This document shows, in pieces, positions 1 to 23,959 of a stretch of 64,000 nucleotides of DNA (position 1 is the first letter of the stretch; each line of letters opens with the position of its first letter). Origin of the DNA: Minisyncoccota bacterium (lineage in GTDB: Bacteria > Patescibacteriota > Minisyncoccia > Phycocordibacterales > WO2-35-19). Where the stretch lies: positions 1,956 to 65,955 of the forward strand of contig JBAYKK010000001.1 in assembly GCA_041664625.1 (NCBI GenBank), given 5' to 3'. Made by a program: the position numbers and the translations under genes. The notes under the pieces were generated by a model. It saw only the letters and a list, made by a program, of their open reading frames with translations, had not been told where the DNA came from and searched no databases.

Positions 1-12
1 TTGAAACTGAGT

Positions 13-72
13 TATAATTAAAGTCGCACTCTAGTCGACGTATCGTGCGACATGATTTCGCTAAATCATATG
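13..72 (+). promoter_or_regulatory. Conserved leader element, copy 1. It has a TATAAT box at 13-18, hairpin 1 (GTCGCAC 23-29 pairing GTGCGAC 45-51) and hairpin 2 (ATGATTT 52-58 pairing AAATCAT 63-69) directly abutting the ATG at 70.
   Basis: Perfect inverted repeats read directly. The same architecture recurs at 9782-9857 with a compensatory change in hairpin 2. Confidence 0.6.
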
Positions 73-2826
73 GAATACAAATTCCCACTACCAAAAATAC
101 CTTTTGAAAACACTGAGGATGAAATAACTCATTTGCGTAAATTGATTGCTGAAAAGGAAAAACATTTAGAAGATATTGGTTTAAAAAAAGAAGATCTTGC
201 GCCAGCCAGAGAAACTCTGGCACAATACAAAGCTGTTTCAGCAGGCAATACTCTCAGTCCTGGTTTTGAAATAAAAAAAGCTGACATAGAAAAAATAGTG
301 GTCAAACTTTCTCCAGAAGAGCACGACAAACAGATCAATGAGTTGGTCACTTTGGCCAAAGAAAAGGGCATCAAAAATGCTTTGGCAGTAGTAGAAAAAA
401 TGTCAAATTTTCATCTGACTGACGATTTCCATCGTTTTGTAGCTGAATATTTGAAAGAAGGCTTCACCATACCAGGTTTAAATATAAAAGAGAAAATTTC
501 TAAAGGCCTAGATATGGTTCTTTACGAAATCTTGATTCCAGAGGAAAGTAATAATGATAATGTCAAAAATACTCTGGAAGAAGTGATTTCTGGTATGGAG
601 CAGTTTTACGCTGGTATGCTTTCTATATCTGATTCTAACAAAGACGAAGGAAATTGGATGTCTTTGGAGATCGCCAATGCCAATTTTTCTCAAGAGATAA
701 TTTTTTATGTTGCGGTACCAAGTATAAGGAAAAATCTATTTGAAAAACAAATTCTTTCTATTTTTCACAATGCCAAAATCACCGAAAAACCCGATGATTA
801 TAATATTTTCAACGAGACCGGTGTGACGGTCGGAGTTTATGCTAAGTTTACCAAAAATCCGATTTACCCGATCAAAACATATGAAAGTTTTATTCACGAT
901 CCACTCAATGCGATGCTTTCTAGTTTTTCTAAGGTTAACCGAGACGGCGAAGGAGCCGCTATCCAACTTATTTGGTCGCCAGCCGGAGAAAAATACGTCA
1001 AAAGGTATAAAGGCGCTTTAGACAAAATCCAAAAAGGTGTGCCACTCAAAGAAGCTATTGATATTCCAGATAATTTTTCTGAAGATGTGGTGCATGTTTT
1101 TAAAGATTTTTTCTCATCGTCTTCTGATTCCAAAAATAAAGATGGTGTAGATAAAAAGCCAGAGCCAATTGATCAAAGCGCCGTAGCTGAAATAAACAAA
1201 AAAATATCAGCACCAATAGTCAGATGTAATTTAAGACTTTTAGCCTCGTCAAATACCAAAAATGAAGCCGAAGAAATATTGAGTAGCTTGAAATCTGGCT
1301 TCAATCAATTTGATAATACTTTGGGCAATGCTTTGGAATGGAAAAAAACTGACGGCGGTGATCTACGTAATTTAGTCAAAAATTTTAGCTTCAGGATTTT
1401 TGATGAGAGTTCTAGTTTGCCAATGAATTTAAGAGAGGTGACTTCAATAGTGCATTTCCACACCAAAGCTCTTTCGGCTTCCGAAGGTTTACGTCAATCC
1501 CGATCGGCTACTGCTCCAGCTCCGCTTGATATCGGTCAAGAAGGGCTACTTTTGGGTATAAATAAACACCGCAATATAGACACCGAAATAAAAATGGCAG
1601 AAGAAGATCGTTTGAGACACTTTTATTGCATCGGCCAGACTGGTACTGGTAAATCTACTTTGCTCAGAAAAATGATTATCCAAGATATCCAAATGGGCCA
1701 CGGAGTTTGTATGATCGATCCTCATGGTAATGATATCCAAGATGTTTTGGCAAGTGTACCACCCGAGAGATATGATGATGTTATCTATTTTGATCCGGCT
1801 TATACGCAGAGACCAATGGCTCTCAACATGTTGGAATTTGATGAAAATTTTCCTGAGCAAAAAACTTTTGTGGTCAATGAACTTTTCAGTATTTTTAGGA
1901 AACTATATGGCAACGTCCCCGAATCTATGGGCCCAGCTTTTGAGCAATATTTTAGAAACTCCGCTCTGCTTGTGATGGAAGACCCAGCTTCGGGTAACAC
2001 TTTGGTAGATATGTCGCGAGTGTTGTCAGACAAATCTTATCGAGATTTGAAAATGTCTAAATGCAAAAATCCTTTAGTCAAACAATTTTGGCTTAATGCC
2101 GAAAAAACCAGTGGTGATCAGGGACTGGCCAATTATGTGCAGTATGTGACCAACAAATTTGATGTATTTTTGGCCAACGAAATCATGCGTCCAGTCATAG
2201 CCCAAGAAAAATCTTCTTTCAATTTCCGCGACATCATGGATAACAAAAAGATTTTGTTGGTCAATCTTTCCAAAGGCAGACTAGGTGATATCAATGCCAA
2301 TTTGATCGGTTTGATTTTGGTGGGTAAGATTTTGATAGCCGCTCTTTCTCGTTCTGATTCTTTTGGTAAAGATTTCCCACCGTTTTATTTGTATATAGAT
2401 GAATTCCAAAACATTACTACCGATTCTATCGCTACTATTTTATCTGAAGCTCGCAAATACAAATTATCTTTAAATATTGCTCATCAGTTTATCGCTCAAT
2501 TGGAAGAAAACATCAAAGATGCAGTTTTTGGTAACGTAGGTTCTATCTGTGCTTTTAGAGTAGGAGCTGAAGATTCAGAAATTCTAGAAAAACAATTTAC
2601 CCCGACTTTTTCTAGTAGCGATTTGATGAATATAGATAATCTAAATGCTTATTTGAAACTTTTGGTAAATGGTAAGCCTGCCAAACCTTTTAATATTTTT
2701 GTACCATTTCCACCAAAAGGGGATTCTGTTCAGGCAGAAAAATTGAAAGAAATGTCTTATTTGAAATATGGTAAACCTCGCGAAGAAATAGAGAAATTGG
2801 TTTTGGAAAAATACAAAATAATATAA
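70..2826 (+). CDS. TraG/TraD/VirD4-like P-loop ATPase of the FtsK/HerA/T4CP superfamily, with a ~500 aa N-terminal domain of unknown function.
   Basis: Walker A 'GQTGTGKST' and a T4CP/HerA-like C-terminal half ('YLYIDEFQN', 'IAHQ'). The start is moved to ATG 70 because the ATG at 52 lies inside the conserved hairpin. Confidence 0.6.
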   Translation: MEYKFPLPKIPFENTEDEITHLRKLIAEKEKHLEDIGLKKEDLAPARETLAQYKAVSAGNTLSPGFEIKKADIEKIVVKLSPEEHDKQINELVTLAKEKGIKNALAVVEKMSNFHLTDDFHRFVAEYLKEGFTIPGLNIKEKISKGLDMVLYEILIPEESNNDNVKNTLEEVISGMEQFYAGMLSISDSNKDEGNWMSLEIANANFSQEIIFYVAVPSIRKNLFEKQILSIFHNAKITEKPDDYNIFNETGVTVGVYAKFTKNPIYPIKTYESFIHDPLNAMLSSFSKVNRDGEGAAIQLIWSPAGEKYVKRYKGALDKIQKGVPLKEAIDIPDNFSEDVVHVFKDFFSSSSDSKNKDGVDKKPEPIDQSAVAEINKKISAPIVRCNLRLLASSNTKNEAEEILSSLKSGFNQFDNTLGNALEWKKTDGGDLRNLVKNFSFRIFDESSSLPMNLREVTSIVHFHTKALSASEGLRQSRSATAPAPLDIGQEGLLLGINKHRNIDTEIKMAEEDRLRHFYCIGQTGTGKSTLLRKMIIQDIQMGHGVCMIDPHGNDIQDVLASVPPERYDDVIYFDPAYTQRPMALNMLEFDENFPEQKTFVVNELFSIFRKLYGNVPESMGPAFEQYFRNSALLVMEDPASGNTLVDMSRVLSDKSYRDLKMSKCKNPLVKQFWLNAEKTSGDQGLANYVQYVTNKFDVFLANEIMRPVIAQEKSSFNFRDIMDNKKILLVNLSKGRLGDINANLIGLILVGKILIAALSRSDSFGKDFPPFYLYIDEFQNITTDSIATILSEARKYKLSLNIAHQFIAQLEENIKDAVFGNVGSICAFRVGAEDSEILEKQFTPTFSSSDLMNIDNLNAYLKLLVNGKPAKPFNIFVPFPPKGDSVQAEKLKEMSYLKYGKPREEIEKLVLEKYKII

Positions 2827-2834
2827 AAGAGGGT

Positions 2835-2856
2835 GGGCTGACCTTGCGGTCAGCCC
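2835..2856. terminator. Perfect 9 bp-stem hairpin GGGCTGACC-ttgc-GGTCAGCCC between convergent genes.
   Basis: Inverted repeat read directly. A T-rich tract follows on the minus strand. Confidence 0.5.
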
Positions 2857-3104
2857 TTGATATGAAAACGGAACTTTTTTTGTCCGCCACTTTTTTTTGC
2901 TCTTTCTTGGTGGCGGATTTGGGAAATCTCTTTTCTCAGCCGGGAGATTTCGGCGGGGTCCTTGATGCCGTGGCCCCTGATCACCATGGTCAAGAGGTGA
3001 GAAAAGTCGATTTTCTCAACTTTTTCACCCTTCAATCTGGCGTATTCGAAGTTCACTTCGTTGGCCATGTACATGGCCTCTGTGGGGAATGCGGTAGGTG
3101 GCAT
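2850..3104 (-). CDS. Hypothetical small protein (84 aa) with GC-rich codon usage.
   Basis: ORF ends in the terminator hairpin and is divergent from the GC-rich pyrEF-like gene. No recognisable motifs. Confidence 0.3.
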   Translation of the reverse strand: MPPTAFPTEAMYMANEVNFEYARLKGEKVEKIDFSHLLTMVIRGHGIKDPAEISRLRKEISQIRHQERAKKSGGQKKFRFHIKG

Positions 3105-3255
3105 GCTTACTCCTTCTGCTTCCTATTATACCATATACACAATTTCTGTCAACTTGACTGTGGATAGCAAAAAATCTTGCTTTTTGACAGTTTTTCATTA
3201 GTATTGTTCTCGGAAGTCTTTTAGAGACTTGATCTTTGTTAGGGAGAAAAAAGTT

Positions 3256-4554
3256 ATGATGCAATCATGGCTTGATCCGTCAGAGCGTGAGTATTTGGTT
3301 TCTCGTTTACTCGAGAGCCAACTTATCAAATTTTCGAACGAAAGGAATTTGCCACTCAAAAGTGGTGGCAAGACTGACGTTTACATCAACTTGCGAGATG
3401 CTCGTAACGATCCACGAGCAATTGGGCTTGTTGCTAGAATGTTTGAAAACCCGCTACGGCGACTTAATCCGGCCCGCTTCATTGAAGTGCCGGATGCGGT
3501 GAGTTGCTTCGCTGGACCACTTTCAATGGCTCTCGGCATGTCATATATCACTGTTCGTGAGAAGCCGAAGGAAGGACGCGTGGCAAAAGCTACGGCCATC
3601 GGCTCAGCAAAGTTCGGAAGTACCGCAGTCATCATTGATGATGTTGTTACCGACGGCGAATCGAAAATCGTTCCGTTCTTCGAGGCAAAATCGATGGGAC
3701 TTCAGGTCAATGACCTCGTTGTTCTCGTCGATCGCCAACAGGGTTGGAAGAAAAAATTCGCTGAACGCGGTGTTGATCTCTCAGTTTGGCCAGGCATGAC
3801 ACTTCACGATGTGCGGAAACTTCTCATCTCGGATTTCGGGGTTATGCAGCGATGCAATCCCGAGACGGAAGAGAAAAATTGCATCATCGTGGCTCTCGAC
3901 GGCAAGAATTGGGAAGAGACGCTAGCGATCATCGACCCACTCCGCCCGTCTGGCTGCATCCTCAAGGTAAACGATCTCCTTTTTGATCAAGGGATCGCTA
4001 ACCTCATTCCCGATCTTCAGGTTTACGGACGAGTCATGGCCGATCTCAAATGCCATGACATTCCGAACACTGTGAAAAACACCTGCGAGCGACTTCGTAA
4101 GAATCCGCCATGGGCTGTTACCGTCCATGCTTCAGGTGCTTCCGGGATGGTTAAGGCTGCTGTCGATGCTCTAGTTGGTACGCCGACCAAGGTGCTCGCC
4201 ATCACGGTCCTTACCTCGATTGATTCGGTAACATGCGAAGATATTTACAATCGTCTTCCGCTGGATCAAGTGTTAATTCTGGCTGAGAAAGCATCTAAGG
4301 CGGGAGCACATGGTTTCGTTTGCTCTCCCGAGGAAGCACGCGAACTCAAACAAATCTATCCCGACAAAACGATTGTCACTCCGGGTATTCGCTCTGAAGC
4401 GACTCCCAAAGATGATCAAGCCAGGATTGCCACACCCTGTGGCGCCAGGGATAACGGTTCTAATTACCTGGTCATGGGCCGTCAAATCCTTGGGGCCAAG
4501 GACCCGGTTGCTGAAGTCAAACGAGTTCTGACTGAAGAACTCGAAATCAAGTAA
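3256..4554 (+). CDS. Bifunctional orotate phosphoribosyltransferase / orotidine-5'-phosphate decarboxylase, a UMP synthase-like PyrE-PyrF fusion.
   Basis: N-terminal half carries the PRPP-binding motif 'VIIDDVVTDGES'. C-terminal half carries OMPdecase motifs 'DLKCHDIPNT', 'VTVHASGASGM', 'VLTS' and 'TPGIR'. RBS GGGAG lies upstream of ATG 3256. GC content is clearly above the flanks. Confidence 0.8.
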   Translation: MMQSWLDPSEREYLVSRLLESQLIKFSNERNLPLKSGGKTDVYINLRDARNDPRAIGLVARMFENPLRRLNPARFIEVPDAVSCFAGPLSMALGMSYITVREKPKEGRVAKATAIGSAKFGSTAVIIDDVVTDGESKIVPFFEAKSMGLQVNDLVVLVDRQQGWKKKFAERGVDLSVWPGMTLHDVRKLLISDFGVMQRCNPETEEKNCIIVALDGKNWEETLAIIDPLRPSGCILKVNDLLFDQGIANLIPDLQVYGRVMADLKCHDIPNTVKNTCERLRKNPPWAVTVHASGASGMVKAAVDALVGTPTKVLAITVLTSIDSVTCEDIYNRLPLDQVLILAEKASKAGAHGFVCSPEEARELKQIYPDKTIVTPGIRSEATPKDDQARIATPCGARDNGSNYLVMGRQILGAKDPVAEVKRVLTEELEIK

Positions 4555-4577
4555 GTTTGGGAATCAATTTTCCAAAG

Positions 4578-4618
4578 GGTCGTCATGAAAGTGATGACCC
4601 ATTTTGTTTGTTGTTTTG
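4578..4618 (+). terminator. Hairpin GGGTCGTCAT..ATGACCC followed by a T-rich tract after the pyrEF-like gene.
   Basis: Read directly. Confidence 0.5.
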
Positions 4619-4678
4619 TATTATTTTTTGTATTAAAATATAGTAAAGGTCATTATTAATTATTAATTTATAAATCGT

Positions 4679-4933
4679 ATGAATTGGCAAAGTTTTTATG
4701 CAGGTCCGGTCAGTGCAGGTTTTTTGGGTATGGCAGGGCTTTTGATTTTAGTAGTTGCTCTCTGGACAATTGTCTGGAAAGGCATGGCTCTTTGGAAAGC
4801 CGCTCAAGAAAAAAATAAAGTTTGGTTTGTAGTTTTGCTTTTGGTCAACACTGTTGGCATTTTGGATATACTTTATCTTTACGTCTTCAGCAAAAGGAAA
4901 TCAGTGACACCAGTCGAAGCTCCAAAAATGTAA
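4679..4933 (+). CDS. Small membrane protein with two predicted TM helices.
   Basis: Hydrophobic segments 'GFLGMAGLLILVVALWTIVW' and 'VWFVVLLLVNTVGIL'. Confidence 0.4.
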   Translation: MNWQSFYAGPVSAGFLGMAGLLILVVALWTIVWKGMALWKAAQEKNKVWFVVLLLVNTVGILDILYLYVFSKRKSVTPVEAPKM

Positions 4934-5043
4934 TAATTTTTTGTTAAGCTTCAAAAAACAAAAACCATCTTTCATAAACATGAGAGGTGGTTTTTGTTGT
5001 GTTTTGGTGGGTTTGTTCTAATATGATAAATGGAGGTTTGGAA

Positions 5044-5424
5044 ATGAAGAAGACTGTTTTAGAGCCAAAGTATTGGCAAATGTCATTGGGTTTTCCATTG
5101 GCCAGATTGCTGAATCGGGTGGTCAGCAACTGTGGTTTCGCTGAAAAAGTAGAGGTGGTCTCGTTCCCTTCCAAGGAATGTTTCAGAGTATTGGTTTTTC
5201 TATTAGATCCATTAGGTGAGCCGATACACCGGGGTACTGGAAAGAGAGGTATTGAATTTATGAGGATCGAAATCAGGTTTCCTGACAGATTCAATATGAT
5301 TTTAGTGAATGCTAGTGGGGGTGGATTTGGTTTTGCCTTTTCTTCACCCACAGTTTTAGCTGTAAAATCAGAAAAAGCATTAACTGAAATTCTGTGTACA
5401 CTTTGGGTGGAAACCAATCCCTAA
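5044..5424 (+). CDS. Hypothetical protein (~126 aa).
   Basis: Good RBS GGAGG 7 nt upstream of ATG 5044. Ends at the bidirectional terminator. Confidence 0.4.
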   Translation: MKKTVLEPKYWQMSLGFPLARLLNRVVSNCGFAEKVEVVSFPSKECFRVLVFLLDPLGEPIHRGTGKRGIEFMRIEIRFPDRFNMILVNASGGGFGFAFSSPTVLAVKSEKALTEILCTLWVETNP

Positions 5425-5452
5425 AAGCCATGAGCGCGTCTCATGGCTTTTT
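5423..5452. terminator. Bidirectional terminator hairpin GCCATGAG-cgcgt-CTCATGGC followed by TTTTT.
   Basis: Read directly between convergent genes. Confidence 0.6.
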
Positions 5453-5462
5453 CGATTTTGCT

Positions 5463-6260
5463 TTACCAAATTTTTCTGAAAAGGCCACTCAATGGCTCGT
5501 GGCCGTTTTTGAATTCTTTTTGGTCTCCGTGTTTCTCTAATTCTTCATTGTATTTGAGGCCCATGCGGATCGGAGCTTTTTTAATCATTTCTAATATTTC
5601 GTTATGATCATCGGTGATGGTGTATAGCGAGAGATCATCTTTTGTTATAGTTTTGTTTTCAACTAAAAATTCTTTAAAGAATTTTTCTAATGCTGACCAA
5701 AAATTAACCCCTACTAATATTATAGGAGCTTTAGGAATCTTATTGGTTTGTACCAAAGTCAAAATTTCCAAAAATTCATCCAAAGTGCCAAAACCGCCAG
5801 GAAAGAAAACATAGGCTTCGGCCGAAAATGAAAGGCAAACTTTTCGGCTGAAAAAATAATGGAAATCTTCTTTGTCGGTTAAGTATCTGTTGTCTAATTG
5901 CTCGTGGGGCAATTCTATCGTCAGACCCAAAGAATTACCTCCAGCTTCAAATGCTCCACGATTGGCGGCTTCCATTATGCCGGGACCGCCACCTGTGGTC
6001 ACAGAATAATGAAGTTCGGTCACTATTTTGCCAGCCAGCTCTCTAGCTTTTTGATAACAAGGTTCATCTTCTTTGGTTCTGGCAGAACCAAAAAAAGTGA
6101 CAGATCTTGGGTAGTTTTTTACAAATTCAAAACCGTTTTCAAATTCTTTGGATATAAAAAGCACTCTTTTTTGAGCAGCTTCGCTTATTTCAGACAAAGT
6201 TATTGGGGCTTTTTGATTTTCCATATACTCACATTCTAATGGTTTTAAATAATAAGGCAA
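5463..6260 (-). CDS. LOG-family (TIGR00730, SLOG Rossmann-fold) nucleotide-binding protein, a cytokinin riboside 5'-monophosphate phosphoribohydrolase-like protein.
   Basis: Motifs 'GGGPGIMEA' and 'PGGFGTLDE'. Confidence 0.8.
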   Translation of the reverse strand: MPYYLKPLECEYMENQKAPITLSEISEAAQKRVLFISKEFENGFEFVKNYPRSVTFFGSARTKEDEPCYQKARELAGKIVTELHYSVTTGGGPGIMEAANRGAFEAGGNSLGLTIELPHEQLDNRYLTDKEDFHYFFSRKVCLSFSAEAYVFFPGGFGTLDEFLEILTLVQTNKIPKAPIILVGVNFWSALEKFFKEFLVENKTITKDDLSLYTITDDHNEILEMIKKAPIRMGLKYNEELEKHGDQKEFKNGHEPLSGLFRKIW

Positions 6261-6307
6261 TATGATAATATCTGGACAGTATTATTAAGAGCTAAATCAA
6301 ATCGCGT

Positions 6308-6808
6308 ATGAAAAAATTATCTAAAAAAGAGTGGGTCGCTGTCAGTGTGGGTGTGGTGTTTGTAGCTTACACTTTGTTTGGTGGTGATGTTTTGAGTTTA
6401 TTTCAAACGGGTAATACCAGTTCTAATTCTTTGGCAGCTACCGCTAGTGCCAACCCTACCAATAACAATGTCATCACAAGTGATGTCGTAGTTGGTCAAG
6501 GGGCTGAAGTCAAAGTGGGGCAGTTGGTTTCGGTTAATTATATCTTAGCTTTATCTGATGGTACCGTTGTGCAAAACTCTAAAGATTTTGGTCAAACTTT
6601 TAAATTTACCTTGGGTGCCGGAGAAGTGATCCCTGGTTGGGAAATGGGTTTTGCTGGTATGAGAGTTGGTGGTGTACGTGTCGTCACTATCCCTCCAGAA
6701 TTGGCTTATGGGGTCAACCAAGCTGGTCCTATACCTCCAAATTCAACTTTGATATTTACTATTGAATTAGTCGATGCTTCTGATATCGCCCCACAGCCAG
6801 TACAATAA
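6308..6808 (+). CDS. FKBP-type peptidyl-prolyl cis-trans isomerase with an N-terminal signal or anchor.
   Basis: FKBP-domain pattern 'VSVNY...DGTVVQNS...FKFTLGAGEVIPGWEMG..GMRVGGVR'. Confidence 0.8.
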   Translation: MKKLSKKEWVAVSVGVVFVAYTLFGGDVLSLFQTGNTSSNSLAATASANPTNNNVITSDVVVGQGAEVKVGQLVSVNYILALSDGTVVQNSKDFGQTFKFTLGAGEVIPGWEMGFAGMRVGGVRVVTIPPELAYGVNQAGPIPPNSTLIFTIELVDASDIAPQPVQ

Positions 6809-6816
6809 ACTCATCA

Positions 6817-8019
6817 ATGTTAAAAATTGAAAATAAAATAAAAAACTCTCTCGGTAGAGCTGGAGTTTTGACTACGGCTCATGGTTCAATCCAAACTCCG
6901 GCTTTTGTGGCAGTGGGCACCAAAGCTACTGTCAAATCTTTGTCTCCAGAACAAGTCAAAGCGGCTGGTTCGCAAGTAGTTTTGGCCAACACTTATCATC
7001 TTTATTTAGAACCCGGAGAAAAAATAGTGAAAGAAGCCGGGGGCTTACATAAATTCATGAATTGGCAAGGTCCGACCATGACTGATTCGGGTGGTTTCCA
7101 AGCTTTTTCTTTGGGGGTGGCTTATGGTAGTAATTTAAATAAGTTTATTGTGAGTGATGCTCCGACAGTTGCCGAGATCGATGAAGCGTATGATAAAAAC
7201 AAAATAAAAAAAGCCAAAATAACTGAAAATGGAGTAGAGTTTCAATCTATTATCGATGGTAGTGCACATTTTTTTACGCCCGAAAAATCTATCCAAATTC
7301 AAAATGATTTGGGGGCGGATATTATTTTTGCTTTTGATGAGTGCACCTCGCCTCACGCTTCCAAAGAATATTTAAAAGAAGCTATGGAGAGGACCCACCG
7401 ATGGGCAAAACGTTGTTTAGATTTTCATAATAAAAAAGAACAATTCTTGTTTGGCATCGTGCAAGGTGGGCGCTATGAAGATTTGAGAAAAGAAAGTGCC
7501 AAAACGATAAGCGGTATGGACTTCGGTGGTTTTGGAGTGGGTGGTTCGTTTATAAAAGAAGATATGGCTACAGCAGTAAAATGGGTCAATGAGATATTGC
7601 CAGAAGAAAAACCTCGGCATCTTTTGGGAGTAGGGGAACCAGTAGATTTAATTTTGGGAGTAGAAAATGGTTGCGACACTTTTGATTGTGTCTCACCGAC
7701 GAGACTAGGACGTAACGGCACATTTTTCACTCACCAAGGCAAAATACATATTGAAAATACAAAATATAGAAACATTTTTGAACCGATAGAAAAAGACCTG
7801 CCCGACGGCAAGGCGGGTTGTGGGTGCTACACTTGCCAAAATTATACTGCCGCTTATGTTTCGCATCTTTTTAGAAGCAAAGAAATGTTGGCTGGCACAT
7901 TGGCCTCGATTCATAATCTTTATTTTTTGAATAATCTTATGTCACGAATTCGTCAGTCAATTTTGGACGGCACATTTTTTGAACTAAAAGAAGAATTTTT
8001 GAGAAATTATAAATCATAA
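6817..8019 (+). CDS. tgt: Queuine tRNA-ribosyltransferase (tRNA-guanine transglycosylase).
   Basis: Motifs 'TDSGGFQ', 'LLGVGEP' and the Zn site 'CGCYTCQNYTAAYVSHL'. Confidence 0.9.
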   Translation: MLKIENKIKNSLGRAGVLTTAHGSIQTPAFVAVGTKATVKSLSPEQVKAAGSQVVLANTYHLYLEPGEKIVKEAGGLHKFMNWQGPTMTDSGGFQAFSLGVAYGSNLNKFIVSDAPTVAEIDEAYDKNKIKKAKITENGVEFQSIIDGSAHFFTPEKSIQIQNDLGADIIFAFDECTSPHASKEYLKEAMERTHRWAKRCLDFHNKKEQFLFGIVQGGRYEDLRKESAKTISGMDFGGFGVGGSFIKEDMATAVKWVNEILPEEKPRHLLGVGEPVDLILGVENGCDTFDCVSPTRLGRNGTFFTHQGKIHIENTKYRNIFEPIEKDLPDGKAGCGCYTCQNYTAAYVSHLFRSKEMLAGTLASIHNLYFLNNLMSRIRQSILDGTFFELKEEFLRNYKS

Positions 8020-16671: not shown

Positions 16672-17100
16672 GTGATGAATCTAAAAGAATTAAAATTAGC
16701 AGGTGGGCTTATTTATATGTGTGAAGGAACTAAACTTCGCCAAGATCTGCGTTATAAAAATACTTTTATATATGCGATAGAGTTTACTAATTCTAATCCT
16801 AAATTGGTTTTTTTGTTCGTTAAATTTATGAAAAAGATTTTGAATATTGAACCAAATAAAATTAAAGGCCAACTTTTTATTTATCCAGATTTAGATAAGA
16901 AAAAAGTTATGGATATATGGAGCAGTCGGACGGGTGTGCCCATTGAACAATTTCAAAAAATCATTATGCTTAAGGCGAAGGTTTCAAAATTTAAACATAA
17001 CCCATTAGGTACGTTTAAAGTGAGGTATTCGAGTAAAGAAAAATTTTTGAAGCTTCAGGAAATAATGGATAGTATTTGGAGAGATGCGAGAGTGGTTTAA
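16672..17100 (+). CDS. Hypothetical protein. 'LAGGLIYMCEG' weakly resembles a LAGLIDADG motif. Its 3' end overlaps tRNA-Ser by ~23 nt.
   Basis: ORF only. The motif resemblance is weak. Confidence 0.3.
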   Translation: MMNLKELKLAGGLIYMCEGTKLRQDLRYKNTFIYAIEFTNSNPKLVFLFVKFMKKILNIEPNKIKGQLFIYPDLDKKKVMDIWSSRTGVPIEQFQKIIMLKAKVSKFKHNPLGTFKVRYSSKEKFLKLQEIMDSIWRDARVV

Positions 17101-17162
17101 TCGGCAGACCTGGAAAGTCTGTGTGGGGCAACTCACCAAGGGTTCGAATCCCTTTCTCTCCG
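17078..17162 (+). tRNA. tRNA-Ser (anticodon GGA) with a long variable arm. CCA is not encoded.
   Basis: Hand fold: acceptor GGAGAGA/TCTCTCC, anticodon stem CAGAC/GTCTG with loop CTGGAAA, and T-arm AAGGG-TTCGAAT-CCCTT. It closely resembles E. coli tRNA-Ser. Confidence 0.8.
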
Positions 17163-17275
17163 CATTGACAATTTAGTATCGGTGTGTCCCGATTACTTGA
17201 GAGTAATCTGCGACCGGAATACTATAAAAAGTTGAACAAAAAATACGAGAGCTATTCGTATTTTTTGTTTTCCTA

Positions 17276-18604
17276 CTAAGCTATCAGAGTTATCTTTTTA
17301 TCCTTATACTCCAACCTGCTTCTGAGATTAGCCAGCAGTTCTCTTTTCTCGCTCGTGCTCCCTTCCTTGAGGAGATACTTGGCGTAATTCCTAATGTCGG
17401 TATCGTAGTTAGTTTGCGTTTTTTCTTTGGCTCCAAGCACAGATCGCTGGAAAATATTGTATCTTTTAATCTCTTCTTCCAACTTATGTTGCATCCCAAG
17501 CTCATTGAGATTCACTTGGTCTATGATTTTAAGAAGCCCGTCAATCAGTTCTTCCTCCCTAATATATTTATTCTTGCAATTCCGGTCTCTAGCTCGGCTA
17601 CACCCGTAGTATATGTAGTGAGCCGAAGTACCATCTTTAAGCGGCTTCCATTTTTCTTCAGCTGATATGCCAGACTGGCAGTACCCACAGGTGAAAAGCT
17701 TGGTAAAGGCAAACTCTTTGTTTTCTCTCACTATCTGATCCCGCTTAAGTTGAGCTTGGGTTTTTTCAAAAAGTTCCTGAGTAATTAACGGCTGGTGCTT
17801 GCCTTGGTACCAGTTTCCAGACTTGGTTGGATACTCAAATGGGCCGTAGTAGAAGGTATTTTGCAGTACTCGGTATACTCCACTTAACGTCAGGGGTTTA
17901 TTCCCCCGGGTATGGAAATTCAGTTCAAATTTCATCCAGTTGTAAATCCTTCTGCCAGAATATTGCTCGTACGCCACCTTCTCAAACATCTTTTTTATTA
18001 TCGGAGCTCTCGCAGGATCAACTAACAACACGCACTTCCTATCCATCATTTTTTGGGTTAAATATCCAAGTGGTGCTTGAGTTGGCCAGAGACCCATCTC
18101 TACTCTAGTTCGCAAACCTCTTTTTACATTGATGCCTCGGTTATCGTTTTCTAGTTTTGCCTGACTGCCTAAAATCATCAGGAGGAATTTTTCATTAGGG
18201 TTATTTGAAAACTTCTGACTATATGTGCGTATTTCCACCAAAAGTTTGGCATCCATGAGGTCTACGATTTTTCCCAAGTCCCCGGCATTCCTTGAAATTC
18301 TGTCCGATGCCCAGGTTAATATTCCATTATATTTTTCTTTCCTAATATCATCGATTATTTCATTAAAGACCACTCTTGTACCGGTCTCTTTTGCAGAGTG
18401 ACTTTCTCTCTTAATTTCTACCACCTCCAACCCTTCCTTTTCAGCCAGTTGAAGCATCTCCTTCACCTGACTATCAATGCTCAAAACTTGCCTCTCCTCG
18501 GACTCGGTACTCTTCCTAGCATAGAGGCAGTATTTGACCGGAACCACCACTTCTTCTTTTTTCTTGAAATCTATAATCGAACTTCTTATTTGTGTTTCTT
18601 GCAT
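17276..18604 (-). CDS. Large serine recombinase (integrase).
   Basis: Catalytic 'YARKSTESEE..SIDSQ' N-terminus, a recombinase domain and a C-terminal Cys cluster 'CGYC...C'. Confidence 0.85.
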   Translation of the reverse strand: MQETQIRSSIIDFKKKEEVVVPVKYCLYARKSTESEERQVLSIDSQVKEMLQLAEKEGLEVVEIKRESHSAKETGTRVVFNEIIDDIRKEKYNGILTWASDRISRNAGDLGKIVDLMDAKLLVEIRTYSQKFSNNPNEKFLLMILGSQAKLENDNRGINVKRGLRTRVEMGLWPTQAPLGYLTQKMMDRKCVLLVDPARAPIIKKMFEKVAYEQYSGRRIYNWMKFELNFHTRGNKPLTLSGVYRVLQNTFYYGPFEYPTKSGNWYQGKHQPLITQELFEKTQAQLKRDQIVRENKEFAFTKLFTCGYCQSGISAEEKWKPLKDGTSAHYIYYGCSRARDRNCKNKYIREEELIDGLLKIIDQVNLNELGMQHKLEEEIKRYNIFQRSVLGAKEKTQTNYDTDIRNYAKYLLKEGSTSEKRELLANLRSRLEYKDKKITLIA

Positions 18605-18746
18605 AATATTTAAATTAGCTTGTATACATACAGAGATGACGCTTTTCGCCCTATGTGTCCAGAGCGTCCCGAGAGCTAACTGTTGGTAACTTTAGCCCCT
18701 AAATTCTTTACTAAAGCCAACAATTATCTTAATATTAAGTACCGTT

Positions 18747-19166
18747 ATGTTTTCAATAGATCTTAAAAAAATTACTAAAATATCAGCGATATTTATTATC
18801 CTGGGAGCAGTGATTTTTGGCTATTTTTGTCTAGACACATTTACTCACCATCAAATGGAAGCGGGGTTAACCGGTAACACTTCATCTGTAATGCAGAATG
18901 CTGAATCTTGTTGTAGTACAACTTTTTCAAAATATTCAGAATCCTTACTATCTAATTTTAATTTGTCATCAAGGGCTGATGATTATTTACTCATTCTTAT
19001 TATCTCAGTTGTATTAGCTTATATAATAAATTTGCTACTTCGCAGTATTACAAATACAGGTTCCTTATTGCAGAGATTGTTCTTACTGCAAAACCCAAAT
19101 CTCGTCGCGTTTAATTCTCTTAAACTAGCTTTTTCAAACGGAATAATTAATCCAAAAATTTTTTAA
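18747..19166 (+). CDS. Hypothetical membrane protein.
   Basis: Two hydrophobic helices. A terminator hairpin follows at 19181-19220. Confidence 0.4.
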   Translation: MFSIDLKKITKISAIFIILGAVIFGYFCLDTFTHHQMEAGLTGNTSSVMQNAESCCSTTFSKYSESLLSNFNLSSRADDYLLILIISVVLAYIINLLLRSITNTGSLLQRLFLLQNPNLVAFNSLKLAFSNGIINPKIF

Positions 19167-19244
19167 CTTCCCAAGTTGTTGCGCTTAATAATGTTTAAGC
19201 GCGTGCCTTTTTGTATTTTACTAATTATTAAACTTAAATAAGTT

Positions 19245-19967
19245 ATGGAAACCGAATTAAAAAAAGAGCGTATATCCATACCCACAGCAATTATCCTGGC
19301 GGGTGTATTAATTGCTGGAGCGGTGATATGGAGTAATAAAAGCAATGCAAATTTAGCTCAAAAACAGCAACCTCAACAAGTCGCGCAGCAGACCGGCGAC
19401 CTCGAGCAGATGGCTAAAATATCTGCTAGCGACCACATTCGCGGTAATCCAGATGCGCCAGTTAAAATCGTCGAATACTCGGACCCGGAATGTCCATTCT
19501 GCAAACGCTTCCACGACACGATGAAGCAGGTCATGGATGAGTACGGCAAAGACGGAAAGGTTGCGTGGGTCTACCGTAATTTTCCGCTTGATCAACTCCA
19601 TCCAAAAGCTCGCAATGAATCCGTGGCTATCGAATGTGCCGGTGATTTAGGAGGTAACGACAAATTCTGGTCATATGCCGATCGGCTCTACGAAGTGACT
19701 CCCTCAAACAACGGCCTTGATCCAGCAGAGCTTCCCAAAATAGCTCAATATGTTGGCCTTGATGTAAGTAAATTCAACAGCTGTCTTACGAGTGGAAAAT
19801 TCGACAAACACATTGAGGATGATGTTCAGAATGCCGCTGCAACAGGTGGAAACGGTACGCCATGGAGCATTGTGGTTGATAAGAATGGTAAGAAGTACCC
19901 TCTGTCCGGCGCACAGCCCTACGCTTCAGTAAAACAGCTAATAGATATCGCTCTACAAAGCAAATAA
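19245..19967 (+). CDS. DsbA-family thiol:disulfide oxidoreductase.
   Basis: N-terminal TM anchor and the thioredoxin-fold active site 'CPFC'. Confidence 0.75.
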   Translation: METELKKERISIPTAIILAGVLIAGAVIWSNKSNANLAQKQQPQQVAQQTGDLEQMAKISASDHIRGNPDAPVKIVEYSDPECPFCKRFHDTMKQVMDEYGKDGKVAWVYRNFPLDQLHPKARNESVAIECAGDLGGNDKFWSYADRLYEVTPSNNGLDPAELPKIAQYVGLDVSKFNSCLTSGKFDKHIEDDVQNAAATGGNGTPWSIVVDKNGKKYPLSGAQPYASVKQLIDIALQSK

Positions 19968-19971
19968 CTCT

Positions 19972-20514
19972 ATGGTATTTCAAGCTCTGCAAAAAGTATT
20001 CCGGAGACCACAGTATGCGCTACTTGCTTTCGTAACAAGCGTAACAGTCTTTGTGTTTGCTGTCTGGTTCCCAAACCTACCACTGATTGTAAGAATCATG
20101 GGACACTCAGACATATTATTCTCGCAGAAGTTTGATCTACCAATCAGTCTTTTAGGATCAATTGTTACCAACTTCACTCTGCTCTCCGCTTCATACACTA
20201 TAGCTATCGCTATTTTGTTCGGAATTAATCTGTCTATGCTCGTCTACTTTTTGCGGCGAAGAGTTGCTGAAGTAAAACAAGGAGGAATTGCCACAGGAAT
20301 ATTTGGTATTACGAGCGGAGTTGTAGGAATCGGCTGTGCCGCCTGCGGATCGTTTCTCTTGACCAGTATTCTCTCGCTAGTTGGTGCATCCTGGATACTT
20401 TCATTTCTTCCCTTGCGCGGAGCGGAATTTGGCATCTTAGGGGTAATCTTACTTTCCACATCACTCTACACAACAGCGAAGAAAATCCAAAATCCGGTTA
20501 TCTGCAAAATTTAG
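19972..20514 (+). CDS. Polytopic membrane protein with an intramembrane CxxC ('GCAACGS').
   Basis: Hydropathy pattern and the Cys motif. Confidence 0.45.
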   Translation: MVFQALQKVFRRPQYALLAFVTSVTVFVFAVWFPNLPLIVRIMGHSDILFSQKFDLPISLLGSIVTNFTLLSASYTIAIAILFGINLSMLVYFLRRRVAEVKQGGIATGIFGITSGVVGIGCAACGSFLLTSILSLVGASWILSFLPLRGAEFGILGVILLSTSLYTTAKKIQNPVICKI

Positions 20515-20537
20515 CCACAATCATTTAAATCAAAAAT

Positions 20538-21134
20538 ATGGAACCCACAATAAATCAAGAATTAACACGTCAGCAGCGCAGAGAGGTTGAACGACAAGAA
20601 AGAAAAAAAGGAGAAGGGTCGTCTCTACAAAAACGGAAAATAAAAAAGGTTTTGCTTTGGACAATCGGTACTCTTATCGTGATTGGGATAATCTATTTGC
20701 TTGCAATAAGTGTAAAAAACCAAAAACCAAGGCCTGGTGAAGCCTTTTCAGTACAAGGACAAGAACATATTGCGGTTGGAGCAACTCACGAAGAGTACAA
20801 CTCTAACTTACCCACATCCGGCCCTCATTACGCACAACCCGCAAAATGGGGAGTGTACCAGAGCGAACTGCCTGATGAACAAGTTGTCCACAATCTTGAG
20901 CACGGTGGCATCTGGATTGCTTATAAAGACATTCCTGAAGACACAAAAACTACTTTGGAAGAAATTACAAAATCCGGATTGAAGATAATTATGACACCCA
21001 GAGCCAAAAATGATGCACCTATCACTCTCGCTTCTTGGGGAAGAGTTCAGAAGTTTGAGAGTTTTGACAGACAGGCCATCTTAGACTTTATCAGAGCCAA
21101 TACTAACAAATCACCTGAACCATTTGCGCAGTAG
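20538..21134 (+). CDS. Membrane-anchored secreted protein, possibly DUF3105-like.
   Basis: 'SGPHY....HNLEHGGIWI' pattern. Family assignment is tentative. Confidence 0.4.
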   Translation: MEPTINQELTRQQRREVERQERKKGEGSSLQKRKIKKVLLWTIGTLIVIGIIYLLAISVKNQKPRPGEAFSVQGQEHIAVGATHEEYNSNLPTSGPHYAQPAKWGVYQSELPDEQVVHNLEHGGIWIAYKDIPEDTKTTLEEITKSGLKIIMTPRAKNDAPITLASWGRVQKFESFDRQAILDFIRANTNKSPEPFAQ

Positions 21135-21253
21135 GCGAGAAATAAAGAATGTTGGTTATCCACAGGTGTATATTTGACAAATAGAGTATAGGGGTATAGG
21201 GTATATATAGGTCGATAATAATCAATCCAAATTACCCTATAAACCACTAAATC

Positions 21254-21526
21254 ATGTTAGATCAAAAACTAAAAAAGAAAGCCACCCACCGAGCCAGAAT
21301 CATTCGCGGTCAGATGGATGGCTTAATAAAAGCAATAGAAGAAGAAAAGTATTGTGTTGATTTGATAACACAGTCTCGATCAATTCAGCTCTCACTCAAG
21401 AGTATGGACAGGGTGCTTCTTGCCAACCATCTTCAGGGTCATGTGAAGCACATGCTCAATGATAAAAAACAAGAAGCCAAAGCCATTAAAGAGCTCGTCG
21501 ACCTCTACGCGTTATCAAACAAATAA
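21254..21526 (+). CDS. CsoR/RcnR-family metal-sensing transcriptional repressor.
   Basis: 90 aa helical protein with Cys (YCVD) and His (HLQGH) at the CsoR metal-ligand positions. Confidence 0.6.
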   Translation: MLDQKLKKKATHRARIIRGQMDGLIKAIEEEKYCVDLITQSRSIQLSLKSMDRVLLANHLQGHVKHMLNDKKQEAKAIKELVDLYALSNK

Positions 21527-21528
21527 CC

Positions 21529-21738
21529 ATGCGCAAAAAAATTACATCATTTTTAAAGAAATTTGGAATGCATGAGGTGAAAGAACCTCAGACTTTCTTT
21601 GATGTTGTTTGCGGTATGGAGCTTACAGTGGATAAAATCAAGCACACCGTTGAGCACACGAACGGCACTGCGTATCATTTCTGTTCGAAGTCGTGCAAGG
21701 ATCATTTCGTCAATGATCCTCAAAAATATCTAAGTTAA
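21529..21738 (+). CDS. YHS/TRASH-domain metal-binding protein (1 of 3).
   Basis: 'DVVCGM....YHFCSKSCKDHFVNDP'. Confidence 0.7.
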   Translation: MRKKITSFLKKFGMHEVKEPQTFFDVVCGMELTVDKIKHTVEHTNGTAYHFCSKSCKDHFVNDPQKYLS

Positions 21739-21760
21739 TTAATCAATTAACTCAAAAAAT

Positions 21761-21997
21761 ATGAAGATGTCAAAAATATTGCATGTTGTCAGCGTTATAT
21801 CGGGAATCTTGGGAGTCCTCTCTTTTCTTGGTTTGTTTGGCGGAGGAATGATGTCTGGGTTCTCTGGAATGATGGGATACGGACAAGGGTCTACACTCAT
21901 GCCCATGGGTTCGATAGTATTCTTTCTCATCGCTATCTGGCTTCAGCTCGCAACCATGCATCACATGATGCTCGAGAAGAAAAGAGAGCTTGTTTAG
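21761..21997 (+). CDS. Small membrane protein with a Met/Gly-rich loop ('GGGMMSGFSGMMGYGQGSTLMPMGS').
   Basis: Met-rich motif of the kind seen in Cu(I)-binding proteins. Preceded by the AT palindrome motif. Confidence 0.45.
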   Translation: MKMSKILHVVSVISGILGVLSFLGLFGGGMMSGFSGMMGYGQGSTLMPMGSIVFFLIAIWLQLATMHHMMLEKKRELV

Positions 21998-22011
21998 ATT
22001 AAAAACTAATA

Positions 22012-22194
22012 ATGAAAACCATGGAAAATAACCACCCATCAAGAAAAGTGTTCGATCCAGTGTGTGGCATGGAGCTTGATATTGAAAATGTCAGACATTC
22101 TTTTGAACACGAAGGTATAGAGTATTACTTCTGTTCTGAGAAGTGCAAAACTGAATTTATTAATGATCCGGAAAAGTTTATTAAAAAAGATTAA
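22012..22194 (+). CDS. YHS/TRASH-domain metal-binding protein (2 of 3).
   Basis: 'DPVCGM....YYFCSEKCKTEFINDP'. Confidence 0.7.
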   Translation: MKTMENNHPSRKVFDPVCGMELDIENVRHSFEHEGIEYYFCSEKCKTEFINDPEKFIKKD

Positions 22195-22224
22195 TTATCA
22201 CTTAATTAATAATTAACAAAAAAT

Positions 22225-22491
22225 ATGAATCTCTCACTAAAATCATATGGCTGGAAGTGTGTCATTGGAGCCGAAGTGGCATACATTCTTTGTGTATTGG
22301 GCGGATTCCTCCCCTTACGGTCAGCGGCTGGGATACAGCTTCATCACACCATTTTTGAAACTCTACCTGGCTTTACTTGGATTAGTTTTGGCAGCTTCAT
22401 ACTTGGTGCAATCTATATGTTCGTCTTCGCTTGGATTTTCGCTTCCTATTTCGTGTGGATGCACAATTCAAGTTTAATAAGTACTAAATAA
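22225..22491 (+). CDS. Small membrane protein.
   Basis: Two or three TM helices. Preceded by the conserved TTAATTAATAATTAAC motif. Confidence 0.4.
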   Translation: MNLSLKSYGWKCVIGAEVAYILCVLGGFLPLRSAAGIQLHHTIFETLPGFTWISFGSFILGAIYMFVFAWIFASYFVWMHNSSLISTK

Positions 22492-22499
22492 TCAAAATT

Positions 22500-22799
22500 A
22501 TGCACAACCACGAAAAAGACAATAAAGGAATGGGTTCTATGATGTGGATGATGCTCATCTGCTGTGCTGTACCACTGATTCTTATTCTTCTCTTTGGAGT
22601 AGGAGGCAAAGCATTTGGCGCTTCGTCATGGGTTATTTTTGGTGGAGTTGCGTTTATGCTGTTGGCCCACTTCTTTATGATGAGAGGCCATGGACATTCT
22701 AATGAAGAAAAAGATAAACAAGGTATTGCTGGTGAAGATAGCAAAAACAAAGATGATAAGGACCACAAAGATCATTCCGGTCATGGATGTTGCAGTTAA
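22500..22799 (+). CDS. Met/His-rich small membrane protein ending in 'SGHGCCS'.
   Basis: 'MGSMMWMM', 'HFFMMRGHGHS' and a C-terminal His/Asp/Lys-rich tail with a CC pair. Confidence 0.45.
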   Translation: MHNHEKDNKGMGSMMWMMLICCAVPLILILLFGVGGKAFGASSWVIFGGVAFMLLAHFFMMRGHGHSNEEKDKQGIAGEDSKNKDDKDHKDHSGHGCCS

Positions 22800-22815
22800 A
22801 TAAAGTTAAAATTAT

Positions 22816-23025
22816 ATGGAAAACAAAATAAAATCATTGATCAAAAAATTGAGTAGGTTTGGTTTTAGTGTCAAACCCAAAAAAGAAAGCCATATAGATC
22901 CCGTGTGCGGAATGGCGGTGTCGGATGATTCTCTCAAAGCCGATTATAAAGGCAAAAGTTATTATTTTTGCTCAAGCCACTGTAAAGAACAGTTCATAGC
23001 CAATCCTAGTGAGTACGTAGATTAA
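22816..23025 (+). CDS. YHS/TRASH-domain metal-binding protein (3 of 3).
   Basis: 'DPVCGM....YYFCSSHCKEQFIANP'. Confidence 0.7.
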   Translation: MENKIKSLIKKLSRFGFSVKPKKESHIDPVCGMAVSDDSLKADYKGKSYYFCSSHCKEQFIANPSEYVD

Positions 23026-23029
23026 AAAC

Positions 23030-23482
23030 ATGGATACAAAACAGAAGACAAAAATATTCCTTAATGCCATTACGGCGACTCTTTCGCTTCTACTTTTGTA
23101 TTTTGCCATAGTTACTCTGGTATCTGGCTTCAAATTTGCCATGTCTCAATTTGAAAGCTTTTGGTATTTTTTAATCAGTCTGGCGATAGGATTTGGAATC
23201 CAGATTGGTCTGTACTCTTATCTCAAACAACTGGTTAAAAACAGCAACACGATTATGAAGGACAAGACTATTGCAGTAACTGGGACAACTTCCACTCTAG
23301 CCATGATTTCATGCTGTGCTCATTATCTTGCCAATATTGTACCCATACTTGGTATAGCCGGAGCGCTTACTATTATCGCCCAATATCAAACTGAGATTTT
23401 CTGGGTTGGACTTGCATTTAACCTGTTTGGCATTGCATTTATCAGTAATAAAGTCATTAAATTTAAAAAATATCATGAATAA
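23030..23482 (+). CDS. Membrane protein with four predicted TM helices.
   Basis: Hydropathy. Confidence 0.45.
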   Translation: MDTKQKTKIFLNAITATLSLLLLYFAIVTLVSGFKFAMSQFESFWYFLISLAIGFGIQIGLYSYLKQLVKNSNTIMKDKTIAVTGTTSTLAMISCCAHYLANIVPILGIAGALTIIAQYQTEIFWVGLAFNLFGIAFISNKVIKFKKYHE

Positions 23483-23936: not shown

Positions 23937-23959
23937 TTTTTTAATCAAATCAGAACGAT

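Follow-up and report, generated by a model that had tools for sequence, protein, structure and literature searches.

A predicted bifunctional UMP synthase of Patescibacteria, probably fused independently of the eukaryotic enzyme and long resident, yet recombining, at a GC-rich locus

How did a GC-rich gene that fuses the last two enzymes of uridine monophosphate (UMP) synthesis, in the domain order known from eukaryotes, come to reside in the genome of a Minisyncoccota bacterium? The gene in question is located at positions 3256..4554 (plus strand) of a 64,000-nucleotide stretch of contig JBAYKK010000001.1 (assembly GCA_041664625.1), the whole of which is referred to here as the window. It encodes a protein of 432 amino acids (aa) in which a PyrE-like part, viz. 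orotate phosphoribosyltransferase (OPRT), is followed by PyrF, the decarboxylase of orotidine 5'-monophosphate (OMP), and it is thus similar to UMP synthase (UMPS). A preliminary description of this DNA regarded the gene, together with a divergent open reading frame (ORF) of 84 aa, as a GC-rich islet suggestive of horizontal acquisition. The results described below confirm the observation of the fusion and support its evolutionary interpretation in part: the gene probably specifies a bifunctional UMP synthase of a family belonging to the Patescibacteria, which was fused independently of the eukaryotic enzyme, has resided at this locus for a long time and yet is accessory and recombining, and whose GC excess is intrinsic to it.

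The ORF is listed as 3229..4554 (plus strand) with a TTG start. However, the ATG at 3256 is the likelier start, giving the product of 432 aa, and a putative Shine-Dalgarno-like sequence (GGGAG, 3242..3246, plus strand) can be read 9 nt 5' of it. Directly 3' of the stop codon, a consensus scan shows a hairpin of 10 pairs followed by a T run (4577..4610, plus strand), which by its pattern resembles an intrinsic terminator. The motifs by which the fusion was originally recognised, viz. AVIIDDVVTDGES, ADLKCHDIPNT, AVTVHASGASGM, VLTS and TPGIRS, are all found in the translation, and the coordinates of the domains bear out that a single ORF carries both parts, with the OPRT-like domain preceding the OMP decarboxylase as in eukaryotic UMPS. 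If a frameshift or a stop codon in reality divided this ORF into two genes, then the fusion would be an artefact. However, the identical 432-aa protein is predicted on four contigs of differing origin (JGI/NCBI, ENA and Logan) and its 120 best homolog clusters are nearly all of full length, and due to this a frameshift or an assembly artefact is excluded.

The C-terminal domain (residues 205-432; 3868..4551, plus strand), as delimited by profile, PDB and Foldseek matches, is an OMP decarboxylase of bacterial type. Its residues 207-427 match Pfam PF00215 with 150.6 bits (E 8e-44; cut-off 27), and the domain exceeds the cut-off of TIGR01740 (156 bits vs 92.3) and, barely, also that of NF001273 (194.5 bits vs 193). 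The best matches in the PDB are to PyrF of Lactobacillus, E. coli, Coxiella, Vibrio and Bacillus (1e-32 to 1e-36, 116-129 bits), with E. coli PyrF scoring 120 bits, whereas the OMP decarboxylase chains of human UMPS are matched in the PDB sequence search at about 1e-5 (26 bits). In Foldseek, TMt values of 0.77-0.83 were obtained for this domain, those for the PyrF structures of V. cholerae, K. pneumoniae, E. coli and B. subtilis being 0.78-0.83, with E down to 1e-15. In an alignment of 22 diverse homologs, K237 and the DxKxxD motif of this domain (D263-L-K265-C-H-D268) are invariant, and from what is established for PyrF we take these residues to be catalytic. A TIM barrel of this kind would decarboxylate OMP to UMP.

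The N-terminal domain (residues 1-193; 3256..3834, plus strand) is an OPRT-like type I phosphoribosyltransferase (PRTase) domain, delimited by OPRT models that score below their cut-offs and by PDB and Foldseek matches. Residues 2-193 match OPRT models only, each with a score under the curated NCBIfam cut-off (NF010382, 55.9 bits vs 208; TIGR00336, 43.2 vs 106.8; NF001729, 31.6 vs 245), and Pfam PF00156 (PRTase) gave no match at E<=0.01. Due to these low scores, the specificity of the domain for orotate is read from its motifs and its best matches. In the PDB sequence search, the top 7 matches are all OPRTs, including the OPRT part of Leishmania UMPS (8e-17) and human OPRT (2e-12), and OPRTs of the E. 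coli type were not detected in this search. In Foldseek, human OPRT (2wns) is matched with a TMt of 0.79 and Burkholderia OPRT with 0.67-0.70, and the OPRT part of Leishmania UMPS is matched as well. The motif for binding of phosphoribosyl pyrophosphate (PRPP), VIIDDVVTDGES, reads A-V-I-I-D128-D129-V-V-T132-D-G134-E-S136, and within it D128, D129, T132, G134 and S136 are invariant in the same 22 homologs, as are K105 and R108 of the loop R101-E-K-P-K105-E-G-R108. Also invariant is R160, located in VDRQQG, a motif whose aligned counterpart in the human and Leishmania OPRTs is DR(E/D)xG. The lysine and arginine residues of the loop and R160 presumably correspond to residues of Salmonella OPRT, its orotate-binding arginine included. 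The two domains are connected by a helical linker, WPGMTLHDVRK, which is conserved in the family, and an AlphaFold2 model based on 22 homologs (pLDDT 86, pTM 0.84) has two domains and a well-predicted connecting helix. The N-terminal domain, as a type I PRTase of the OPRT kind, would join orotate and PRPP to form OMP, and the whole protein is read as an OPRT-OMP decarboxylase for which both activities are predicted.

The preliminary description contrasted this fusion with the separate pyrE and pyrF genes that are normal in bacteria. However, it is not a bacterial one-off but part of a large family. A protein search with the fusion gave 982 matches at E<=1e-5, and the best 120 cluster representatives among them, from which the details are taken, are nearly all full-length and show 59-86% identity. 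The named sources of these best matches are Kaiser-, Jorgensen-, Sung- and Niyogibacteria, Minisyncoccia, Paceibacterota and 'Patescibacteria group', and every named homolog is annotated just as 'orotidine-5'-phosphate decarboxylase'. A scan of GTDB species genomes yielded 60 loci, nearly all labelled as lineages of the Patescibacteria group, and it added Taylor-, Falkow-, Moranii-, Yanofsky-, Doudna-, Buchanan-, Staskawicz- and Azambacteria. After clustering of the library at 50% identity, representatives of the same domain order are few, and there are many PyrF-PyrE fusions in the reverse order as well as stand-alone relatives of one half or the other. Unfused relatives are also found in Patescibacteria (homologous loci are referred to here by L numbers), viz. 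PyrF alone on L090 and L091, and on L092, a 963-kb contig, an OPRT gene of the pyrE_Therm type (128.8 bits) followed by an unfused PyrF that is 61% identical to the C-terminal domain. Searches of the literature for OPRT, orotidine, pyrE, pyrF or UMP synthase in conjunction with Patescibacteria, Parcubacteria or CPR (candidate phyla radiation) found nothing on this fusion family.

If the domain order reflected a eukaryotic-type origin, then both halves of the protein should resemble those of eukaryotic UMPS. The human enzyme (PDB 2wns for OPRT; 2qcc and others for OMP decarboxylase) has the same two predicted activities in the same N-to-C order, and its OPRT domain, which is the second-best PDB sequence match, is of the same subfamily as the N-terminal domain of the fusion. 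However, the OMP decarboxylase of the fusion is of the short bacterial type, in accordance with the very different scores of the E. coli and human proteins noted above, and the linker is a helix specific to this family. The bacterial type of the C-terminal domain, along with the 61%-identical unfused PyrF behind a different type of PyrE on L092, thus indicates that the fusion occurred independently of eukaryotic UMPS and that the shared order is convergent. Fusions in the reverse order, OMP decarboxylase followed by OPRT (NF004034/PRK05500; Leishmania UMPS, PDB 3qw4), are likewise bifunctional. They occur in cyanobacteria and kinetoplastids, and the bacterial form, for which NCBIfam holds a model (NF004034), provides a bacterial precedent for fusing both enzymes. 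The OPRT domain of Leishmania UMPS is even the best PDB match to the N-terminal domain. However, the order of the domains is opposite, and NF004034 matches the window protein with 45.7 bits against a cut-off of 656, in the OPRT part only. Both orders are known in eukaryotes according to a passage in PMC7052976, and also according to Makiuchi et al. 2007 as cited in a passage of PMC2817406. In comparison with the separate PyrE and PyrF of bacteria, the C-terminal domain passes the cut-offs of the PyrF equivalog models and the presumed catalytic residues of both enzymes are kept, but the fusion is a single polypeptide and its N-terminal domain is too divergent for the curated PyrE models. A further comparison is offered by Chlamydiae, reduced host-dependent bacteria that likewise keep a distal pyrimidine enzyme, an orphan pyrE, without the early pathway (PMC3091639). 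However, they are reported to lack pyrF, which leaves the module incomplete, whereas the fusion holds both steps in one protein. To judge from these sequence comparisons, the window protein belongs to a conserved, Patescibacteria-wide and poorly annotated family that was fused independently of eukaryotic UMPS. It would then be a clean case of the same two enzymes having been joined independently, in the eukaryotic order but with a decarboxylase of bacterial type.

Two further occurrences lie at the margin of this family. On L095 (GCA_054036915.1), a distant fusion of the same order (6001-7341, 446 aa, about 32% identity) has as its neighbours DapD, DapE, GlnD and alanine racemase. The genome is not Patescibacteria-like, and this context would therefore place the PyrE-PyrF fusion, or a second independent one, outside the Patescibacteria. 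A PP2C phosphatase gene is located downstream of the L095 fusion, as it also is in the Jorgensenbacteria locus L005. The other occurrence is at 5298-6585 of L093 (IMGVR_UViG_3300027887_000043; also L094 and L097), a contig of 26.5 kb on which a 229-aa PyrF is followed directly by a stand-alone homolog of the N-terminal domain (194 aa, 47% identical), which carries the linker motif GMTL.DVR. This contig consists of dense, small ORFs on the same strand, mostly orphan genes, together with an endolysin. A PHROGs search of this contig found only the endolysin and a few families of no known function, and its viral status is mainly that given by IMG/VR. The pair looks like a phage-borne, unfused pyrF-pyrE of the Patescibacteria type.

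If the fusion is a family trait of the Patescibacteria, it may still have come to this locus recently. The alternative to be considered here is that a recent horizontal event brought in a GC-rich islet of 1.7 kb, comprising the UMPS-like gene, possibly of eukaryote-like origin, and the 84-aa ORF. In favour of this view, the gene is markedly GC-richer than its surroundings, its homology to most other genomes ends at the ends of the coding sequence with differing neighbours beyond them, and a close relative (L100) is without it. However, the position of the gene in a second relative does not agree with a recent insertion. Named Zambryskibacteria proteins match window FtsZ with 85-88% identity, and by FtsZ the genome appears to be that of a Zambryskibacteria-like Paceibacterium. 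Contig JAXOUH010001282.1 of GCA_034680565.1 (L098/L099), whose FtsZ is 84% and whose UMPS is 80-82% identical to those of the window, has 22 orthologs in common with the window (42-84% amino-acid identity) and has the fusion at the corresponding position, likewise oriented, the gene order being DUF378, DUF87 ATPase, variable small genes, UMPS, LOG (minus strand), FKBP and TGT. The window and L098 alleles of UMPS are sisters in 277/300 bootstraps. At four-fold sites the identity between the two genomes is near saturation (0.43 for UMPS; 0.26-0.42 for the other orthologs), and a recent arrival of the complete gene by introgression from a genome like L098, which was also considered, is not supported. 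The shared slot, the sister alleles and the saturated sites thus indicate that the fusion has been at this locus since a fairly deep common ancestor, i.e., it would already have been flanked by the genes for the DUF87 ATPase and LOG when the lineages of the window and L098 diverged. The fusion is not GC-rich relative to its neighbours in L098 (0.45 at third codon positions, GC3, vs 0.39-0.58). For all other orthologs but one, GC3 is lower in the window than in L098, by 0.13 on average, and for UMPS it is 0.05 higher in the window. Two observations on the surroundings of the L098 gene may also be recorded. The TGT gene of L098 (11431-13047) is interrupted by a DUF559/MTES_1575 endonuclease-like insert, with which a separate ORF of 117 aa in the window (54312-54665) shares 42% identity, and a GIY-YIG gene is present in the variable spacer upstream of L098 UMPS. 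They point to small mobile endonuclease genes.

The second part of the proposed islet, the 84-aa ORF, does exist as described (2850..3104, minus strand) and is GC-rich, at about 0.47. However, it is a separate unit, as indicated by its own promoter and terminator and by its distribution. A consensus scan shows a perfect sigma-70 promoter leading into it (3125..3152, minus strand; TTGACA-16-TATAAT, 12/12, with the TG of an extended -10), and a terminator-like hairpin of 9 pairs (7 GC) extends over its stop codon (2835..2856, minus strand). The encoded protein matches no Pfam or NCBIfam model, and among 5.8 billion proteins it is found in two clusters, viz. its own and that of a single homolog on L100 (83% identity). 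L100 is a Logan contig of 2.3 kb with 84.5-85.3% nucleotide identity to window positions 2136-3173 and 4672-5456 (90% for 4626-4666), which has just a few bases in place of window positions ~3176-4620. What is missing is thus a cassette of ~1.45 kb, consisting of leader, coding sequence and terminator (3176..4620, boundaries good to about 10-15 bp), whereas the homolog of the 84-aa ORF is retained with a GC of 0.49 and its promoter sequence is kept. As this ORF remains where UMPS is absent and no homolog of it is found beside any other UMPS, it was rejected as a co-transferred partner. For a gene of which only one homolog is known, so perfect a promoter along with a terminator of its own is unusual.

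If L100 represented the state before an insertion, traces of insertion might be expected at the edges of the cassette. No target-site duplication, inverted repeats or integrase were seen there by eye. T-rich microhomology is present at both edges, which fits a deletion, and parsimony, given the synteny with the outgroup, favours a deletion on the L100 branch over an insertion. We infer that the change was a deletion on the L100 side. The fusion is in either case accessory, the L100 lineage having lost the cassette or never had it. Beside its empty UMPS site (1142-1197), L100 also has a copy (56 bp, 86%) of window positions 12-67, where the region of the DUF87 gene begins, and this may be a small repeated intergenic element.

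The GC excess, on which the proposal of acquisition was largely based, is borne out by the comparison of codon positions with the background. The GC content of the fusion gene is 0.502 as against 0.398 for the rest of the window, and its GC3 of 0.50 compares with a mean of 0.384 (sd 0.087) for the 72 ORFs of the window and of about 0.35 for the 11 nearest genes (z=5 vs these 11). The region 2827-3255 has a GC of 0.44 and the downstream spacer of 0.25. The fusion is not the only GC-rich spot of the window, as equal or higher values are found at 36.2-42.0 kb and in the genes at 47.9-49.1 kb. The other GC3-rich genes code for restriction-modification methylases, an M78/helix-turn-helix (HTH) pair, an EamA transporter and a PEP-CTERM protein, and those for restriction-modification and HTH/M78, being typical of mobile DNA, favour the islet. 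However, the excess does not by itself serve as a mark of acquisition. At each of the 56 related loci compared (L005-L063), the GC content of the fusion exceeds that of its flanks, with hosts of every GC level and almost no negative offsets (mean excess 8.5 points, maximum 17.5; gene-flank r=0.78). In a split by codon position, in which the fusion was compared with neighbouring genes of >=150 aa, positions 1 and 2 show a mean excess of +0.064, the fusion ranking first or second in 72% of the loci, and they supply about a third to half of the GC excess. Part of it is therefore due to the amino-acid composition of a conserved enzyme. At position 3 the mean excess is +0.105 but very uneven, with z ranging from -1.7 to +9.6, many values near 0 and a few slightly negative. 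This synonymous excess is family-wide and one-sided, and random transfer between genomes of differing GC would not give it. Codon bias of the expression type was rejected as its cause, since FtsZ, DnaB, L21 and S1 have GC3 values of only 0.33-0.42 and the other GC3-rich genes are those for restriction-modification, HTH and transporter proteins. The GC richness of the locus would rather have three causes, viz. a conserved protein rich in Gly, Ala, Arg, Asp and Val, which would lift positions 1 and 2, a GC-richer central patch (described below), and an unexplained tendency of the whole family to hold synonymous GC above the level of the host. For genome scans this is a caution, as the GC-rich islet here is probably not a recent import.

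The history of the gene was, however, probably not one of vertical descent alone. Its identities across genomes disagree, in sequence terms, with those of FtsA, LepB and Pth. In L072, UMPS is 77-79% identical to that of the window, whereas FtsA (30%), the HisS-like protein (24%), LepB (41%) and Pth (30%) are distant. In L043/L063, by contrast, UMPS shows 60% identity, with FtsZ at 68%/77%, FtsA at 54% and TrxB at 56-58%, and in L098/L099 the UMPS value of 80-82% goes with 75% for FtsA, 51% for the HisS-like protein, 64% for LepB and 55% for Pth. FtsI and RsmH show the same incongruence between Jorgensenbacteria and L019. These identities are also among the points that favour an islet. The fusion is located beside an ftsZ-ftsA-ybeY block on L072, L043, L063, L042 and L048, and at several other loci within <=10 kb of rsmH-ftsI. 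Its nearness to division genes elsewhere makes it possible that this was an older position, from which relocation or replacement took place in the window lineage.

A central segment of the gene (3643..4125, plus strand), recognised from sliding-window and block identities, differs from the remainder in its phylogenetic affinity and has a higher GC3. For residues 170-280 (nt 3763-4095), the block that was examined in protein neighbour-joining trees with 300 bootstrap replicates, the window and L098 are sisters in 1/300 replicates, as against 290/300 outside the block, and the window allele instead groups with GC-richer alleles in 207/300. The GC3 of the window gene is 0.58 in the block and 0.46-0.47 outside, whereas that of L098 is flat (0.43-0.47). 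This suggests that the central segment is a gene-conversion patch, i.e., that the middle third of the fusion may have been converted by a GC-richer allele from another Paceibacterium. The proposal of horizontal transfer thus survives in one form and not in another: the incongruence, the mosaic centre and the absence from L100 argue for exchange among Patescibacteria, while an import from outside them finds no support. In view of the shared slot in the syntenic relative, the saturated synonymous sites, the GC excess at all 56 related loci, the independence of the 84-aa ORF, the bacterial-type C-terminal domain and the edges of the cassette, at which no integrase, repeats or target-site duplication were seen, we consider a recent islet to be unlikely.

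A more far-reaching proposal, put forward here tentatively and with considerable doubt, is that pyrEF is an accessory cassette for orotate salvage, which has been repeatedly lost, regained and patched by homologous recombination among Patescibacteria, possibly with the aid of phages, and that its GC excess is a footprint of this recombination (GC-biased gene conversion). If this is true, orotate or dihydroorotate leaked by the hosts would be a major cross-fed source of pyrimidines for these episymbionts, and, with the PyrK-PyrD fusions that adjoin the gene at some loci, the distal pathway would be compacted into two polypeptides.

Some observations weigh against the reading of the gene as a long-resident, recombining, bifunctional UMP synthase with an intrinsic GC excess. 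The N-terminal domain is under every curated OPRT cut-off, with PF00156 silent, and the insertion or deletion rests on one short Logan contig. The inference of a mosaic comes from neighbour-joining on ~110 residues, with blocks that were chosen after inspection, and beyond the central patch the synonymous excess is unexplained, the GC3 there being still well above the ~0.35 of the neighbouring genes.

With regard to the role of the protein, Pfam matches of the 129 genes that directly adjoin the fusion at about 65 loci show that its neighbourhood is little conserved, with ParB found 6 times and MiaA and dihydroorotate dehydrogenase 4 times each. On L059 (8214-9965, Doudnabacteria) and L058 (8226-9962), a 583-aa PyrK-PyrD fusion is present directly upstream (NF005574, 370 bits), in which the PyrD part is a class 1B dihydroorotate dehydrogenase and PyrK its electron-transfer subunit, and the last three steps to UMP are thus located in two polypeptides. 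Genes for dihydroorotate dehydrogenase also adjoin the fusion on L079, L069, L010 and L015, and weaker PyrD-like matches occur within a few kb of it on L083, L024, L052/L087 and L028. Such PyrD or PyrK-PyrD-like genes, found beside or near the fusion at about five to ten of roughly 70 loci, are the best independent support for a real role of the fusion in the distal pyrimidine pathway. A conserved neighbour of 330-350 aa was considered as a candidate for PyrD, but it was rejected as it is ParB, within a topA-spoT-parB-UMPS-miaA block. The EamA transporter, which lies upstream of the fusion in Jorgensenbacteria and is GC-rich in the window, was likewise rejected as a partner, since it is absent among the recurrent families of neighbours.

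If the fusion were simply the compact pyrEF of an ordinary, complete de novo pathway, then pyrB, pyrC and pyrD would be located elsewhere in the genome. The PyrD-like neighbours at some loci and the very strong conservation of the protein are in accord with this possibility. However, no pyrB, pyrC, pyrD-like or carAB genes were found in the 64-kb window (the extent to which the check proposed in the preliminary description was carried out for this genome) or in 40 kb of the syntenic relative. Further, the fusion is dispensable in the close relative L100, and Patescibacteria are reported to lack nucleotide biosynthesis (PMC11809585). A complete pathway is on these grounds improbable, and it is plausible that in this genome the fusion is a distal module fed by scavenged orotate, which it would convert to UMP, while at loci where PyrD-like genes adjoin it the input could be dihydroorotate. 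Lastly, the N-terminal domain might be a PRTase that acts on another base, or a PRTase-like module that senses a ligand or has a regulatory function, like that of PyrR or of GfcR, an archaeal regulator resembling PyrE, and the protein would then be functionally PyrF only. This is very improbable: OPRT-like proteins reportedly act as regulators, which together with the sub-cut-off scores and the silence of PF00156 would favour it, but the acidic PRPP motif, the loop lysine and arginine and the presumed equivalent of the orotate-binding arginine are invariant in the family, the fusion has no DNA-binding domain, catalytic OPRTs are the best sequence and fold matches of the domain, and PyrF alone would have no source of substrate if the genome has no other OPRT.

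The reading of the fusion as a predicted UMP synthase bears on how Patescibacteria are understood. These bacteria are described as unable to make nucleotides, yet a strongly conserved protein predicted to convert orotate to UMP is present in many of their lineages. As the databases label it as PyrF only, metabolic reconstructions based on Pfam or KEGG miss its OPRT half, and recognising the fusion makes orotate or dihydroorotate a testable candidate for a host-derived metabolite.

Some other features of the window are of note in connection with mobile DNA. A gene for a large serine recombinase (17276-18604, minus strand) adjoins tRNA-Ser (17078-17163), and it is followed, up to about 34000, by genes for copper and thiol-redox functions, viz. 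a DsbA-like protein, DUF3105, a heavy-metal P-type ATPase (24393-26654), a multicopper oxidase (26659-28263), DsbD and AhpC. The region 17078-34000 looks like an integrated element carrying metal resistance. The GC3-rich run at 36158-42000, probably of mobile or recently gained DNA, comprises genes for two N6/N4 DNA methylases (the N-terminus of one resembling ParB), the M78 peptidase/HTH pair, a 230-aa ORF of unknown function and the gene for the EamA transporter. tRNA-Val (47718-47793) and a GC-rich ORF resembling a receiver domain (47876-48256) come just before the gene with the highest GC content in the window (48389-49072, minus strand; GC 0.58, GC3 0.72), whose product has a PEP-CTERM-like end.

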